From NCBI GenBank assembly GCA_017577405.1, contig PIUA01000025.1, positions 5,525 to 69,524 of the forward strand: a stretch of 64,000 bases of DNA, given 5' to 3'. This DNA is from Bacillota bacterium (lineage in GTDB: Bacteria; Bacillota; Limnochordia; Limnochordales; Limnochordaceae). The notes below the pieces were generated by a model. The model had not been told where the DNA came from, searched no databases, and was given only the letters and a program-made list of their open reading frames with translations. Positions 46,759 through 52,836 of this stretch are shown here, piece by piece. Numbering within the stretch: the first letter of the stretch is position 1; each line of letters starts with the position of its first letter. The translations under genes and the position numbers were made by a program.

Positions 46759-46787
46759 TTGACACTTTCTGGGCGGATTGGTATAGT
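46759..46787 (+). promoter_or_regulatory. Near-consensus SigA promoter of the MMPL operon
   Basis: TTGACA, 17 bp, TATAGT with extended TG. Confidence 0.82.
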
Positions 46788-46856
46788 TGCCCCGTGTAGC
46801 ATGACGACGAGGGGCCGGTCAGCGTTGGCCGGAGCCGGTCTGGGAGGCCAGGTGCA

Positions 46857-49208
46857 ATGGAACGCGTGGGTCGGTGGGTCGCCTCGCACCCCCGGTGGGT
46901 GATCGGGGCGATTGTGCTCCTTTCAGCGGCCTGCGCGAGCCTTCTTCCCCGGATCGGCTACAGCGCGGACCTGGGGGCTATGATCCCCCAGGGCGATCCC
47001 GTCATCGAGGCCCTCAACCAGACCGCGGTCGACTTCAGCAACGAAAGCGTCCTGATCATCCTCTACGCCGCGGAGGATGTTTTCCGGCCCGAGGCGTTGG
47101 CTCAAGTGGATCGCGTCGCCCAGCAGCTCGCCACCATCCCCGGGGTAGCCGGGTTGGTGACGCCCCTCAACATGCCCCTGGTCCGGGCCAGCGACTGGGG
47201 GATCGAGATCGAGCCGGCGGCCAGCTCCGTCCCCCGGACGGCCGCGGAAGCCGCCACCTTTCGGGACCGGCTCTTCTCATCGCCCCAAGGCCGGCAGGTG
47301 GCCGCCCCCGACGGCCAAGCCCTGGCCCTCCTGGTCGCCGTCGATCCCGCCTACCAGGGCTCTTCTGAGCGGTACCAGGGGCTCATCCGCCGGATCGAAG
47401 AGGTCTTGACCCAAGCCGGCGAAGGCCAGTGGTACCTGGCGGGCGATGGCTACATGGGGGCGTACGCCGAGCGGGTCATCTACCGGGATCTGCGGGTGCT
47501 CCTCCCCCTGGCGGCCCTGGTGGTCTTCCTCATCCTGCTGGGGGCCTTCCGGACGCCCTGGGGCATCCTGCTCCCCTTGGGTTCCGTCTCCATCGCGGTG
47601 CTCTGGACCATGGGCCTGATGGCCTTCCTGGGGTACGAGTTCACCCTGGTCTCGATGCTGATCCCCATCATCCTCATGGCCATGGGGAGCGCGGCGGGGA
47701 TCCACGTGATGAACCGGTTCTATGAGGAGGTGGGCCGGGGGCTCTCCCAGCGGGAGGCCATCGAGCTGACCATGACCGAGATCACCCGGCCCGTGGTGAT
47801 GACCGCCCTCACCACCGCGGCGGGCTTTGCCTCCCTGCTCACCTCCTACGTCCAGCCCATCCGGGAGTTCGCCCTCTTCTCGGCCATTGGCATCCTGTTC
47901 GCGATGGTGGTGACCCTTACCTTCATCCCGGCGGTCTTGGTCCTCCGGCCGGTTCCGGCCCGGCAGCAGGGCGGCAGCCTCCGGTCGGGTCTCTGGGCCC
48001 GGCTGGTGGCGCCGGTGGCCCGGGCCTGCGCCCGGCGGCCCCTGGCGGTGGTCGGGGCGGGCGTGGTGGTGTTGGTGGTCAGCCTGGTGGGGGTGCCCCG
48101 GCTGGAGGTGGAGACCAACCTGGTCTCGTACTTCCGGCCCGACAGCCCCGTCGTCCGGGGGACCCGTCTGGCCGAGCAGTTCTTGGGCGGGACGACGCCC
48201 ATCTCGGTGGTGATCGACACGGGCGTTCCCGACGGGGTGAAGGAGCCTGAGATCCTCCGCCGGCTGGCCGCCTTGGAGGCGGACCTGGCGGCCATGCCGG
48301 AGGTGAGCCAGCCCCTCTCCCTGGCGGGCGTGGTCGCCCAGGTGCACCAGGCCTTGAACGGCGACGATCCCGACGCCTACCGGATCCCCGACAGCCGGGA
48401 GGCGGTGGCCCAGGAGCTCCTCCTCTTCGACTTCGCGGGCGGGGTGAGCCTTGACGGGTTGGTGAGCTACGACTACCAGAAGACCCGCCTGGTGGCCCGT
48501 ATCGCCAATGTGGGCACCGCCGATCTGGCCCGGATCATCGGCCAGATCGAAGAGGCGGCCCGGGCCCGGTTCGCGGGCACGGGGATCGAGCCGGTGGTGG
48601 TGGGGACGGCTCAAGTGGTCCTCCGGCTGGCCGAACACTTCACCGGGGGGCAAATCAGCAGCATGAGCTGGGCGGCGGGGACGGTCTGGGCCATCGTTGC
48701 CGTGTTTCTCGGCTCGCCGCTCCTCGCGCTCTTCTGCCTGATTCCGCTCCTCTTGACCGTGGCGGTCTCCTTCGGGGTGATGGGGTACGGCGGCGTGCCC
48801 CTGGACATGGTGACCACCATGGTGGCCAGCCTCGCCATCGGCATCGGCGTGGACTACTCCATCCACCTGGTGAGCCGTTACCGCCAGGAACTGAACCGCG
48901 GGGTGGCGAAAGGCGAGGCTATGGCCCGAACCTTGGCGGGCACAGGCCGGGGCGTGATGGTGAACGCGCTCACCCTGGCCGCGGGGTTTGTGGTCTTGCT
49001 CGTCTCCAGCCTGCAGGCCACCGCGATCTTGGGGTGGCTCCTGGCCCTGACCATGGTGGTCAGTTCGGTGGGCGCCCTGACGGTGCTCGCCGCGGTCTTG
49101 GGACTCTTGCCCGAGGGCTGGGTGCGGGCACGGTGGGCCCTACCGGGGCGCGCCGTGCGCGGCGGGACGGAAGGCCGGGTCCGGCGCGGGGGATCGGCTT
49201 GGAGGTGA
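46857..49208 (+). CDS. MMPL/RND-family inner-membrane transporter
   Basis: Two repeats of TM + extracytoplasmic domain + 5 TM; TALTTAAGFASL, PIREFALFSAIG and GIGVDYSIH. Confidence 0.92.
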   Translation: MERVGRWVASHPRWVIGAIVLLSAACASLLPRIGYSADLGAMIPQGDPVIEALNQTAVDFSNESVLIILYAAEDVFRPEALAQVDRVAQQLATIPGVAGLVTPLNMPLVRASDWGIEIEPAASSVPRTAAEAATFRDRLFSSPQGRQVAAPDGQALALLVAVDPAYQGSSERYQGLIRRIEEVLTQAGEGQWYLAGDGYMGAYAERVIYRDLRVLLPLAALVVFLILLGAFRTPWGILLPLGSVSIAVLWTMGLMAFLGYEFTLVSMLIPIILMAMGSAAGIHVMNRFYEEVGRGLSQREAIELTMTEITRPVVMTALTTAAGFASLLTSYVQPIREFALFSAIGILFAMVVTLTFIPAVLVLRPVPARQQGGSLRSGLWARLVAPVARACARRPLAVVGAGVVVLVVSLVGVPRLEVETNLVSYFRPDSPVVRGTRLAEQFLGGTTPISVVIDTGVPDGVKEPEILRRLAALEADLAAMPEVSQPLSLAGVVAQVHQALNGDDPDAYRIPDSREAVAQELLLFDFAGGVSLDGLVSYDYQKTRLVARIANVGTADLARIIGQIEEAARARFAGTGIEPVVVGTAQVVLRLAEHFTGGQISSMSWAAGTVWAIVAVFLGSPLLALFCLIPLLLTVAVSFGVMGYGGVPLDMVTTMVASLAIGIGVDYSIHLVSRYRQELNRGVAKGEAMARTLAGTGRGVMVNALTLAAGFVVLLVSSLQATAILGWLLALTMVVSSVGALTVLAAVLGLLPEGWVRARWALPGRAVRGGTEGRVRRGGSAWR

Positions 49209-49213
49209 CGTGG

Positions 49214-50002
49214 ATGGATTGGCGGAAGGGTCTGGCCGCACCCTTTCTCGCGGCGTGCGCGGCCTTGTGGCTCCTGACGGCGGTCGGGGCGGCCGCCGAG
49301 CTGACGGGGCCCGAGATTCTGGAACGGCTCCAGGGCGACTCCCCGCTGGCCACCCAGCAGGGGATGGCCCAGGTCCGGCTTACCACGGTCAACGAGCGGG
49401 GCCAGGAGCGGCCCAGCGAGATGCGGATCTTCATCCGGACGTCCGCAGACGGGACCGAGCAGCTCCTGGAGTACGTGGCCCCGGCCGACGTGGCGGGCAC
49501 CAAGCTCTACACCCGCACGCCCCGGAAGGGCGACCCCGACATTCTCCTTTACCTCCCCGCTTTGGGCCGGGAGCGGCGGATCGCCGCCACCGAGCGGGGC
49601 TCTACCTTCATGAACACCGACTTCACCTATGAGGAAATCACTAGCTTCGCTTCCTTTACCCAACTGTACACCGCGGAGCGGTTGGCCGACAGCGAGTGGG
49701 AGGGGCGCCCGGCCTACGTCCTCCGGCTCACCCCCAAGGAGGCCGACAGCCTGTACAGCCACGTGGTGATGTACGTCTGGCAGGAGGAGTTCCTGCCCCT
49801 GAGGGTCGACTTCTACAACCGGGATGGGGTCCTGTGGAAGCAGCTCCTCAACAGCAATTTCCAGCAGACCCCCGCCGGAACGTGGGAGGCGCGGCGGATC
49901 GAGATGGTGAACGTGCTCAAAAAGACCAAGACCATCATCGATCTGGTCACCACGTCCCGCACGGACGTCCCCGCCAACTTCCTGCGGGAGCTGCGTCGCT
50001 AG
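49214..50002 (+). CDS. Outer-membrane lipoprotein-sorting (LolA-like) protein
   Basis: Signal peptide; PADVAGT, LYLPALGRERRIA, FMNTDFTYEE, YSHVVMYV and RVDFYN motifs of the LolA_like family; RBS GGAGGTG. Confidence 0.85.
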   Translation: MDWRKGLAAPFLAACAALWLLTAVGAAAELTGPEILERLQGDSPLATQQGMAQVRLTTVNERGQERPSEMRIFIRTSADGTEQLLEYVAPADVAGTKLYTRTPRKGDPDILLYLPALGRERRIAATERGSTFMNTDFTYEEITSFASFTQLYTAERLADSEWEGRPAYVLRLTPKEADSLYSHVVMYVWQEEFLPLRVDFYNRDGVLWKQLLNSNFQQTPAGTWEARRIEMVNVLKKTKTIIDLVTTSRTDVPANFLRELRR

Positions 50003-50044
50003 GCGACGGAAGGACAGGCTGGAACCTTGTTGAGGAGGATCGCG

Positions 50045-51355
50045 ATGGGCCCCCGTCACACCCCAGAACGCTCCCCCCACCCAGCGCTCGCCTTGGTCCT
50101 GGGCTTGCTGTTGGCTTTGGGCCTGGCGGGCGTGGCGCGCGCCCAGGATGAGGTGACCATCCGGGGCCAGGTGGGCCAGACGCTGGGGTTCTTTCTTACC
50201 GAGGGATCCCGGCTCAACGGGGATGAGATCACGTGGGGACCGGGCCAGGTCTCCCTCAACCGGACCCACTACCAGCTCCAGTTTGAACGCCGGTTCGGCT
50301 GGGAGGCGGCGGGCCACATCTCCCTCAAAGGCTACTGGGACGCGGGGGTGGCGGGTCTGGAAGCCCTGAAAGGGGTGGCCAACGGCGACAGCTCCACCCT
50401 CCTGGAGCTGGACCAGGCCTACGTCGATCTCTACTCGGATCTGACCGACTTCCGCATTGGCCGCCAGCGGATCGCTTGGGGAACGGCCGACGGCTTCAAC
50501 CCCACCAGCTACTTCTCGCCCCTCACCTTGGACCTGACCCGGGGTTTGGAGGGGCTGGTCCAGCCCGTCACCGCCATCCGGACCAGCACCTACTTCAACG
50601 TGGGGACCCTGAGCGTGGTGATCGTCCCCGCGTTCGAGCCGTCGGAGTGGGAAAGGGTGCTCCAAGACGAGACCGGCCTGAGCGTGACCGCCGAGAACGT
50701 GAAGGACTATGAGAACCCCGGCGAGATCGGCCTCCAGTTCGACACCTTCTACCGGGGGACAAGCCTGTACCTGAGCTACTTCAACGGGTACGAGGACCAG
50801 CCGGTCGTCTGGGAGGGCGAGGCCAACCTGCACGGCGCATGGCGGCGGGAACAGAAGGTGGGGCTGGCGGCCGCGACGGCCTGGCGGGGCTTCACCCTCT
50901 GGGGGGAGGGGACCTACACCTTCCCCGGCCGGGTGGAGGGCCTGGACGAACAGCGCGCGGGGCAGATCTGGGGCCCCACGAAGCCTTATCCCACCGCCGT
51001 TCTGGGGGTGGACTACCTCTTCCCCCGGGGGATCCGGGCGGAGCTCCAGTACATCTACAACGGCCGGGGGAGCCTCCTCAAGATCTTCAACGAGAGCGAC
51101 GTTCCGGCGGGCCAGTACCTGATGGGGCTCGCCTCCATCCCCCTCACCGATGATCAAACCCTGGAGCTCCTGGCCCTGGACAGCCTCCGGGATGATTCGC
51201 GGGTCCTGGTCCCCACCTACCGGTACCAGCTCACCCCCACCACCCAGGCCAGCCTGAGCCTCATCCTGGTGGATGGGGGCCCGGCGAGCGAGGTCGGCCA
51301 GAAGCATCTGAGCGACCTGGACCAGCTGACCCTCGCGGTGACCGTCCGCTTCTGA
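50045..51355 (+). CDS. Putative outer-membrane beta-barrel protein (DUF1302-like)
   Basis: Signal peptide (ARA/QD), ELDQAYVD and FRIGRQRIAWGTADGFNPT motif, alternating beta-strand pattern, C-terminal LTLAVTVRF ending in Phe. Confidence 0.75.
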   Translation: MGPRHTPERSPHPALALVLGLLLALGLAGVARAQDEVTIRGQVGQTLGFFLTEGSRLNGDEITWGPGQVSLNRTHYQLQFERRFGWEAAGHISLKGYWDAGVAGLEALKGVANGDSSTLLELDQAYVDLYSDLTDFRIGRQRIAWGTADGFNPTSYFSPLTLDLTRGLEGLVQPVTAIRTSTYFNVGTLSVVIVPAFEPSEWERVLQDETGLSVTAENVKDYENPGEIGLQFDTFYRGTSLYLSYFNGYEDQPVVWEGEANLHGAWRREQKVGLAAATAWRGFTLWGEGTYTFPGRVEGLDEQRAGQIWGPTKPYPTAVLGVDYLFPRGIRAELQYIYNGRGSLLKIFNESDVPAGQYLMGLASIPLTDDQTLELLALDSLRDDSRVLVPTYRYQLTPTTQASLSLILVDGGPASEVGQKHLSDLDQLTLAVTVRF

Positions 51356-51411: not shown

Positions 51412-52122
51412 GTGAAGCTCTTCGCGCTGGCCGACCTTCACCTGCCCGGCGGCCAGGAGAAACCCATGGACATCTTCGATCCCATCTGGCGGGACCACCC
51501 GGCCCAGATCGCCGCCCGCTGGCGGGAGCGGGTGGGCCCCGACGATCTGGTCCTGGTGCCGGGGGACATCTCGTGGGCCATGACCTTGGAGGAAGCCGCG
51601 GACGATCTCGCCTTCATCGGCGGCCTCCCGGGCCGGAAACTCCTCCTGCGGGGGAACCACGACTACTGGTGGTCCTCCATCAGCAAGGTGCGGGCCGCCC
51701 TCCCCGAAGGGGTGCACGCCCTCCAGAACGACTGCTTCGACCTGGGGGACGGCCGCGCGGTCTGCGGCACCCGCGGGTGGCTCATCCCGGGCAGCCAGGG
51801 CCTCGAACCGCACGATGAGAAGGTCTACCAGCGGGAGGCCATCCGCCTCCGGCTCTCCTTGGAAGCCGCGGCCGAGGCCGGGCTCCGGCCGGTGGTGGCC
51901 ATGATGCACTACCCGCCCTGCGATGCCCAAGGCTGGCCCACCCTCTTCACCCGGCTCTTGGAAGAGTTCCAGGTCCCCTTGTGTGTCTACGGCCACCTCC
52001 ACGGGCCGGCGGCCAAGGCCGCCCCGCCCCCCGAGGTGCGGGGGGTCCGGTACCAGCTGGTGGCGGCCGATTACGTCCGCTTCGAGCCGGTGCTGCTGAA
52101 CCCGCTCCTGGAGGGCCGTTAA
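51412..52122 (+). CDS. Calcineurin-like metallophosphoesterase
   Basis: ADLHL, PGDISWA, RGNHDYWW, MHYPP and YGHLH. Confidence 0.92.
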   Translation: MKLFALADLHLPGGQEKPMDIFDPIWRDHPAQIAARWRERVGPDDLVLVPGDISWAMTLEEAADDLAFIGGLPGRKLLLRGNHDYWWSSISKVRAALPEGVHALQNDCFDLGDGRAVCGTRGWLIPGSQGLEPHDEKVYQREAIRLRLSLEAAAEAGLRPVVAMMHYPPCDAQGWPTLFTRLLEEFQVPLCVYGHLHGPAAKAAPPPEVRGVRYQLVAADYVRFEPVLLNPLLEGR

Positions 52123-52125
52123 CCT

Positions 52126-52836
52126 TCAGCTCTCCGGCGAGCGGGCGGCGTCGCCCGTCTCCATGCGGCGGCCCTTGAGCTGGTGGGCCACCCGCTGGCC
52201 GGAGACGATGTAGATCACCCGCTCGGCGATGTTGGTGGCGTGGTCCGCGATCCGCTCCAGGTAGCGAGCGACGAAGATGAGGTTGATGGCCTGGCTGGCC
52301 CGGCGGGCATCGCCTCCCTGCAGCACGAAGCCGATCAGCTCGTCGAAGAGGGCCGAGTACAGCTCATCCACCGGATCGTCGGCGAGGCAGACGGCTTCCG
52401 CCGCCTTCACATCCTGGCTCACCAGGGAGTCCAGGCTCTGGCGGGTCATCTCCTGGGCCATGGAGGCCATCCTGGGGATGTCGATGAGGGGCTTGATCAG
52501 CGGGTCCTGGGCGATGCGGAGGGTGATCTCGGCGATGTTCACCGCGTAGTCGGCCATCCGCTCCAGATCGGTGACAACCTTGAGCACACCGCCCACCAGG
52601 CGCAGGTCCCGGGCCAGGGGCTGCTGGAGGGCCAGGAGCCGCATGCACCGTTCTTCGATGCGGCCATCCATCTGGTCGATCAGGTCGTCCATGCGGATGA
52701 CCTGCCGGGCCATCTCCGGATCCCGATCGGCGATGGAGCGGGTGGCCAGGGCGATCATCTCTTCCACCAGGCCCCCCATTTTGAGCAGCTCTTCCTTGAG
52801 GCGCTGCAGGTCGTTCTCGTAGGCTTGCCGGGCCAT
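52126..52836 (-). CDS. phoU: Phosphate signalling protein PhoU
   Basis: LALQQPLARDLR, DLERMADYA, PLIDIPRM and ARYLERIADHATNIAE. Confidence 0.96.
   Translation of the reverse strand: MARQAYENDLQRLKEELLKMGGLVEEMIALATRSIADRDPEMARQVIRMDDLIDQMDGRIEERCMRLLALQQPLARDLRLVGGVLKVVTDLERMADYAVNIAEITLRIAQDPLIKPLIDIPRMASMAQEMTRQSLDSLVSQDVKAAEAVCLADDPVDELYSALFDELIGFVLQGGDARRASQAINLIFVARYLERIADHATNIAERVIYIVSGQRVAHQLKGRRMETGDAARSPES

Follow-up and report, generated by a model that had tools for sequence, protein, structure and literature searches.

The window analyzed here is a stretch of 64,000 nucleotides from a Bacillota bacterium of the family Limnochordaceae (assembly GCA_017577405.1, contig PIUA01000025.1, positions 5,525 to 69,524 of the forward strand). 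It contains a promoter-like site followed by three tightly spaced genes, which encode an MMPL-type RND pump, a LolA-like carrier, and a β-barrel protein (Table 1). The pump and carrier genes are 5 bp apart and the carrier and barrel genes 42 bp, a Shine-Dalgarno (SD)-like sequence is found at all three starts, and the barrel protein ends in LAVTVRF. A first-pass annotation, made from the letters alone, had described the three open reading frames (ORFs), the two gaps, the C terminus, and the promoter site, and all of these were confirmed. It had also placed the block after prmA, which is correct, and had found no adaptor, TolC, or regulator gene adjoining the trio, which was borne out by inspection of the genes at the locus; TolC-family matches in the same genome sit on contigs C45 and C51, away from the trio. 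Judged by sequence, the trio is an MMPL, PF17131, and DUF1302-like barrel cassette of the Porphyromonas gingivalis PG1178-81 type, resembling also the AmeABCD system of Castellaniella defragrans.

Table 1. Promoter-like site and genes of the three-gene block (positions in the window; aa, amino acids)
Feature	Position	Strand	Basis
Promoter-like site, SigA type, TTGACA-17-TATAGT with extended −10 TG	46759..46787	+	11/12 positions match
HAE3/MMPL-type RND pump gene, 783 aa	46857..49208	+	Pfam MMPL, fold model
LolA-like (PF17131) carrier gene, 262 aa, ATG start	49214..50002	+	Pfam, PDB sequence matches
Barrel gene, DUF1302-related, 436 aa, ATG start, C-terminal Phe	50045..51355	+	Structure model

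The MMPL identity proposed for the first gene is supported by both Pfam (E value of 7.8e-57; 193 bits versus a cutoff of 20.5) and the fold model. The best NCBIfam family is HAE3 (TIGR00921; 286 bits, under the cutoff of 351.9), and the protein stays far under the equivalog cutoffs of HpnN (137/752 bits), BstA (43/1400), and MmpL3 (42/1400) as well as under that of ACR_tran (17.6 bits versus 28). The structure model (pLDDT, 89.3) has MmpL4 and MmpL5 as its best fold matches (TM-score, 0.72 to 0.76) and also matches MmpL3, HpnN, and NPC1-type folds (0.68 to 0.76 for HpnN and MmpL3/4/5). MmpL3, MmpL4, and MmpL5 are exporters of lipids or lipid-like cargo, and HpnN is described as an exporter of lipid-type cargo (PMC6394551). 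The motif in transmembrane helix 10 (TM10) is GIGVD666Y, and the TM4 motif lacks Asp (A279). Of the 108 cassette pumps compared, 107 retain D666 and 104 retain T319, a conservation that may reflect a one-sided proton relay. A Treponema lead, TP0790, yielded only an AcrB-type model.

The second protein matches Pfam LolA_like (PF17131; E value, 1.2e-38) and, among Protein Data Bank (PDB) sequences, 3BK5 (2.4e-24), 9TP6 (2.7e-17), and 4Z48 (3.4e-15), so that its LolA-like identity holds. The best PDB match of the carrier family profile is 9TP6, P. gingivalis LolA3 (E value, 4.9e-87), which we take to be PGN_0947, the orthologue of PG1179. The match to DUF1329 is weak (E value of 4.5e-08 over ∼100/368 positions), PF17131 being far better; canonical LolA (PF03548) is not matched by the carrier, and the trio locus contains no LolCDE motor. 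The carrier is predicted to be periplasmic, signal peptides having been judged by eye. A lipobox-like LAAC at residues 12 to 15 was dismissed as a chance occurrence, as it is kept neither in the orthologue from a same-genus genome (G001) nor in the family consensus.

The third protein is predicted to be an 18-strand outer membrane β-barrel related to DUF1302. Its model folds as an outer membrane barrel, as the first-pass reading had supposed (pLDDT, 92.7; pTM, 0.89), with 18 long strands counted in the secondary-structure list and strands that alternate as in membrane barrels. The 12 best VIA structural matches are MOMP, Occ porins, chitoporin, AlgE, LamB, Wzi, and ScrY (Z, 18.5 to 22.6; root mean square deviation, 3.6 to 4.5 Å over 276 to 322 residues), all of them presumably 18 stranded, and an Atlas feature search agrees with the barrel assignment (score, 0.98). 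Pfam matches to Porin_4 (1e-4) and DUF1302 (0.086) are both under the cutoff, and no PDB sequence is matched at an E value of ≤1; of the profile families that had been suggested for the trio, MMPL and PF17131 are thus found over their cutoffs and DUF1302 is not for this protein. At the level of the barrel family, DUF1302 is matched by 63/71 members at an E value of ≤0.01, and 58/66 complete homologues end in Phe. A close homologue (55% identity) is annotated in Limnochorda pilosa, which marks the host as Limnochorda-like.

Judged by its genes, the host is a two-membrane cell. The bamA and lipopolysaccharide genes that the first-pass reading presupposed are present in one cluster on contig C14, which contains bamA, lpxD/C/A/I/B, msbA-like and lptB-like ABC genes, and an SLH-barrel (OmpM-like) gene. 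The genome, which is 86% complete, also contains the sporulation genes spo0A, spoIVA, and spoIIID; neither canonical LolA (PF03548) nor hopene cyclase (PF13243) was found in it. The C14 cluster (∼106600 to 138600; L007:2608 to L008:14602) additionally has OmpH-like and DUF3084 genes and directly follows spoIIID and mreB-like and flagellar rod/ring-like genes. Two Spo0A_C matches were detected in the genome (C11 and C45).

The three genes are conserved together. A pump homologue is present in 42/61 related genomes, and among the 40 MMPL loci of the same class that were fetched, 32 contain the complete trio in the same order, 2 are cut off by a contig edge behind the LolA-like gene, and 6 are orphan MMPLs. 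A search with the carrier profile gave 587 genome loci, and of the best 80, which were surveyed, 60 contained the trio, 12 carrier and barrel, 8 carrier and pump, and none the carrier alone, with many of the incomplete loci sitting at contig ends. These loci span Bacillota, Bacteroidota, Spirochaetota, Thermaceae, Myxococcota, Calditrichota, Atribacterota, and others, in line with the earlier statement that similar trios occur in other diderm phyla; the distribution is uneven, with some genomes having several copies. Five in-frame MMPL-LolA-like read-through ORFs (L048, L051, L085, L087, and L093) still have an SD, an ATG, and a signal peptide where the two parts meet and probably arose by stop codon loss across related genomes; because they look like lost stop codons, they were not weighed as strong evidence of partnership. 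The six orphan pumps (L064, L066, L068, L069, L070, and L072; family f8) lie beside conserved sugar catabolism genes, without carrier or barrel. The f8 sugar cluster looks arabinose-type when read by eye, and the orphan pump has possibly been repurposed; that the orphans mark a loss of the outer membrane was rejected, since Omp85 is present in 6/6 f8 genomes.

Within Bacillota, carrier and barrel are confined to genomes with an outer membrane marker. A presence/absence profile over 301 evenly drawn Bacillota genomes (73 Omp85 positive and 228 others), the comparison that had been proposed at first pass, gave 55 carrier matches and 52 barrel matches, all of them within the 73 Omp85-positive genomes and none in the other 228; in this profile, kin are not independent, diderm relatives supplied most of the sequences behind the search profiles, and a genome counted as lacking a gene is one in which the search gave no match. 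Close MMPL matches fall in Omp85-positive genomes in 45/49 cases, the other 4 being weaker matches in Omp85-negative genomes. This restriction of carrier and barrel among the sampled Bacillota is new here. The question behind it is how diderm Firmicutes build and maintain an outer membrane without Lol, MlaA, or MlaC; the Lol system is reported to be missing from diderm Terrabacteria (PMC10665443). Present in 55/73 versus 0/228 genomes, a periplasmic shuttle that comes with a barrel of its own is a candidate for a role in outer membrane upkeep and for a marker of the diderm-monoderm transition.

By sequence, the carrier-barrel pair is also coupled to a second motor, a LolDE-like ABC system, including in this genome. 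The second cassette (L006:5530-13108; C25:181529-189107, − strand) encodes two LolE-like permeases, a PF17131 carrier, a LolD-like ATPase, and a 339-aa barrel-like protein ending in YYL, together with a 440-aa protein that has two DNA-binding domains of the TetR type. Its barrel aligns weakly with the barrel profile in hhalign (probability, 31%; E value, 5e-4) and is found by the hidden Markov model at an E value of ≤1e-4. Among 40 further loci, all 20 chosen for a high carrier score have MMPL, and most of the 20 chosen for a lower carrier score combine this carrier and barrel with LolD-LolE-LolE; the ABC-type cassette recurs widely in diderm Bacillota. In a tree of 76 carriers, 56 MMPL-linked and 20 ABC-linked sequences are split by a single change, with weak support (84/28) and sampling by score.

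The MMPL cassette is widespread and has already been noted in print, and this copy is a further member rather than the discovery of a system. In P. gingivalis, PG1178-81 is described as one transcription unit of a TetR, an MMPL protein, a lipoprotein-sorting protein, and a porin/hypothetical protein, and is called uncharacterized there (PMC11018363, PMC10434189, PMC13096392). The trio shares with PG1181-PG1178 the MMPL, lipoprotein-sorting, and porin gene classes as well as the 9TP6 match of its carrier family, but it lacks the TetR and comes from a diderm Firmicute. Of the related systems, the nearest for which a phenotype has been tested is AmeABCD, which is described as conferring tolerance to hydrophobic monoterpenes and contributing to dye export (PMC6394551), and for a DUF1302/DUF1329 cluster a fitness study proposes export of a cell wall component (10.1101/072470). 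With AmeABCD and the DUF1302/DUF1329/BNR/COG1033-RND clusters described in these two sources, the trio has in common an HAE3 RND protein, a LolA-superfamily periplasmic protein, and a DUF1302 outer membrane protein. Unlike AmeABCD, it has a PF17131 carrier of 262 aa rather than a full DUF1329 protein (AmeB, 451 aa), a barrel of 436 rather than 605 aa, and no BNR/COG4447 propeller gene between or before its members, the next gene being that of a metallophosphoesterase. Thalassolituus oleivorans TOL_3187/TOL_3188 likewise pair MMPL and a LolA-like domain with a predicted porin; there, the first two are fused and C28 alkane induced, whereas here the genes are separate (PMC6304351).

Like HpnN, BstABC, and MmpL3/4/5, the trio has an RND fold of the kind that moves bulky lipids without an adaptor or TolC, but its pump is far under the family cutoffs of HpnN, BstA, and MmpL3. 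BstABC is described as binding sterols, with BstB and BstC belonging to protein families other than those of the trio partners (PMC10942540). LolCDE-LolA-LolB is similar in the LolA-type fold of the carrier, and the sister cassette has LolD/LolE-like proteins; the trio differs in its RND motor, in having an integral barrel as acceptor where the Lol pathway has LolB, and in the lack of a PF03548 match. It also differs from HAE1 systems of the AcrAB-TolC type in the length of the pump (783 versus ∼1,050 aa) and in having no adjoining adaptor or TolC genes. A full-text search, with most subscription journals and supplements outside it, found no literature that names a cargo for the PF17131 trio or reports the trio in a Firmicute.

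We consider it probable that the trio forms a relay from the inner membrane across the periplasm to the outer membrane, and to this extent the earlier proposal of a relay for a lipid or lipoprotein is well supported; that the relay carries a fatty-acyl-type lipid outward across the envelope is a more specific reading, to which we give about an even chance. From the genes, their linkage, their folds (by model and homology), and the Omp85 restriction, we infer contacts, cargo, direction, energy coupling, and expression as follows. The pump would lift an amphipathic lipid from the inner membrane at the expense of the proton gradient, likely through the conserved D666 and Thr residues near it. The LolA-like carrier would take the lipid into a hydrophobic groove, such as that described for P. 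gingivalis LolA3 (LolA3-PG; 9TP6) (PMC13103446), and shuttle it across the periplasm, so that neither a fusion adaptor nor TolC would be required. The barrel would then accept the lipid and release it into or across the outer membrane. Outward movement is suggested by the model of the pump, whose closest bacterial folds are lipid exporters. In most relatives a TetR, in many cases FadR-like, would switch the operon; in this genus, expression would likely proceed from a bare SigA promoter, with no adjacent TetR. The constitutive expression proposed at first pass accordingly suits this copy, which has neither a TetR nor an operator-like box, but not the family, in which a TetR lies within 3 kb in 82/123 pump-plus-carrier loci (in these neighbor counts, some genomes were fetched twice and many loci are kin).

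FadR-like TetRs, boxes, and phospholipases in relatives hint at a fatty-acyl cargo. Of 78 cassette TetRs, 46 were scanned, and 29 of these match YsiA-like or TetR_C_24 C-terminal families at an E value of ≤0.001 (hand count). The three cassette TetRs tested, two of them chosen for having a FadR-type box, all have Bacillus FadR as their top PDB match (E values, 6e-10 to 3e-21), and FadR His91 is aligned in both TetR alignments inspected. FadR controls fatty acid metabolism genes in Bacillus subtilis, where the form of its box is described (PMC5397183). A palindrome of that form, TGAVTGA-N4-TCABTCA with ≤1 mismatch, occurs upstream in 18/106 loci (9 exact) compared to 0.1 in mononucleotide shuffles, with a consensus that was fixed after some sites were known. 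Patatin genes cluster beside 13/123 loci, PLA1-like genes (E value of 1e-4, under the cutoff) lie beside 7/123, all in Bacteroidota, and Ysc84 genes lie beside 5 loci. Through the FadR-like regulators and boxes in relatives, the class of the cargo could be tested directly as a first step.

Several observations weigh against an outward fatty-acyl relay, among them the choice of the TetRs and the late fixing of the consensus just mentioned. The ligand-binding Arg117 of FadR is kept in neither of the two TetR alignments inspected, and a TetR from an ABC-type cassette also matches FadR (E value, ∼4e-12 to 1e-11), behind two other TetRs. This copy itself has no adjacent TetR, no box, and no adjacent phospholipase. 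In the pump, the usual TM4 Asp is Ala in 95/108 cassette pumps, including this one, so that proton coupling rests on one acidic residue; a Tyr next to the TM4 Ala, present in 62/108, is missing from this copy. The residues that face into the barrel are for the most part polar or small (T, Q, G, V, S, R, and E), which does not make a greasy channel. PG1178-81 is described as responding to NO, iron depletion, and heme limitation or hemH deletion, which does not point to fatty acids (PMC11018363, PMC10434189, PMC13096392). Finally, 18/73 Omp85-positive Bacillota genomes lack both carrier and barrel, which therefore do not form a universal outer membrane pathway.

The regulators and phospholipases could also serve a relay running inward, in which the barrel would admit long-chain fatty acids, lyso-lipids, or molecules like them, or collect them from the outer membrane, and the carrier would hand them to the RND protein for insertion into the inner membrane and catabolism or recycling. 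FadR governs fatty acid metabolism genes (PMC5397183) and FadR-like TetRs and boxes stand beside many cassettes, phospholipase neighbors would produce such a cargo, the closest folds of the barrel include uptake porins (Occ and LamB), and the Thalassolituus MMPL-LolA-like protein and porin are described as induced on C28 alkane (PMC6304351). The pump moreover shares its fold with NPC1-type proteins, of which we take NPC1 and NPC1L1 to mediate sterol uptake. We nevertheless consider an inward relay unlikely: the closest bacterial folds of the pump are exporters, the carrier-barrel pair is also joined to LolD/LolE-type ABC proteins, presumably an extractor/exporter family, and no catabolic cluster recurs beside the cassette.

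Similarly improbable, in our judgment, is a TetR-inducible efflux that detoxifies hydrophobic compounds such as terpenes, heme/porphyrins, or antimicrobials and does not move the cell's own lipids. It would explain the frequency of nearby TetRs, the patchy distribution with several copies per genome, the reduced monoterpene tolerance described for AmeABCD deletion (PMC6394551), and the induction of PG1178-81 by NO, iron depletion, and a heme defect (PMC11018363, PMC10434189, PMC13096392). Against it, in this genus no regulator adjoins the trio and a near-consensus SigA site is retained, the codon usage of the trio is that of its housekeeping neighbors (GC content at third codon positions [GC3], 0.91 versus 0.87 to 0.94), and TolC-family genes exist elsewhere in the genome. 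A substitute Lol pathway, one that serves a lineage lacking canonical LolA by bringing lipoproteins or lipopeptides to the cell surface or the outer membrane, would suit the missing PF03548, the reported lack of Lol in diderm Terrabacteria (PMC10665443), and the LolD/LolE-like proteins of the sister cassette, but it is very unlikely for the trio: lipoprotein, the other cargo offered at first pass, is the weaker option because LolA3-PG, the closest solved homologue, is described as binding LolB very weakly and as lacking the LolA Arg and LolB Leu marks (PMC13103446) and because an F. johnsoniae lolA3 deletion is described as having no observed phenotype (PMC11885536), known MMPL cargoes are given as lipids and siderophores (PMC6304351), and such a pathway fits the ABC-type cassette better than the MMPL-type trio.

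Extending the outward fatty-acyl reading, we tentatively suggest, as a possibility on the doubtful side, that the carrier-barrel pair is an unrecognized module of diderm Firmicutes dedicated to fatty-acyl trafficking at the outer membrane, driven by either an MMPL or a LolDE-like ABC motor, tuned in many lineages by acyl-CoA-sensing FadR-like repressors, and lost each time that Bacillota gave up the outer membrane. If true, diderm Firmicutes, seen so far as a group that depends on bridges and has no Lol, would possess a lipid route of the shuttle type.

A few further observations concern the regulatory and phospholipase neighbors. A second recurring operator-like motif, CGGTCGTC, precedes TetR or pump genes (L040 to L043, L047, and L049 to L051). 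A gene of ∼305 aa with a weak phospholipase A1 match lies in or beside the cassette at L134:3358-4290 and at six other Bacteroidota loci. An adjacent TetR is absent from G001 too, and no FadR-type site with <2 mismatches was found anywhere in the present genome; a decayed operator in the leader of this copy is unsupported, the best site having 6 mismatches.

The promoter-like site is the single match in 10 kb. Shuffled sequence yields 0.5 ± 0.7 matches, and the match is therefore weak on its own; G001 keeps both hexamers and their spacing. In four RNA-labeled compost runs from two studies (4/21 listed), cover was even over the operon and its neighbors; these are contigs only and may derive from DNA. 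The GC content and GC3 of the trio are in line with those of its neighbors, and a recent horizontal gain, of which they show no sign, was rejected. The position after prmA is presumably that of rsmE-mtaB in B. subtilis; in the present genome, which is 86% complete, no rsmE (PF04452) was detected. In G001, the block is likewise flanked by prmA and a metallophosphoesterase gene, a position unique to that genome among the loci compared. The metallophosphoesterase gene (51412 to 52122) starts 56 bp after the barrel gene, with no terminator found between them by a scan; as it adjoins the trio only in G001, it was rejected as a fourth subunit. It converges on a PhoU-like gene (window positions 51412 to 52836), and the same arrangement is found in G001.

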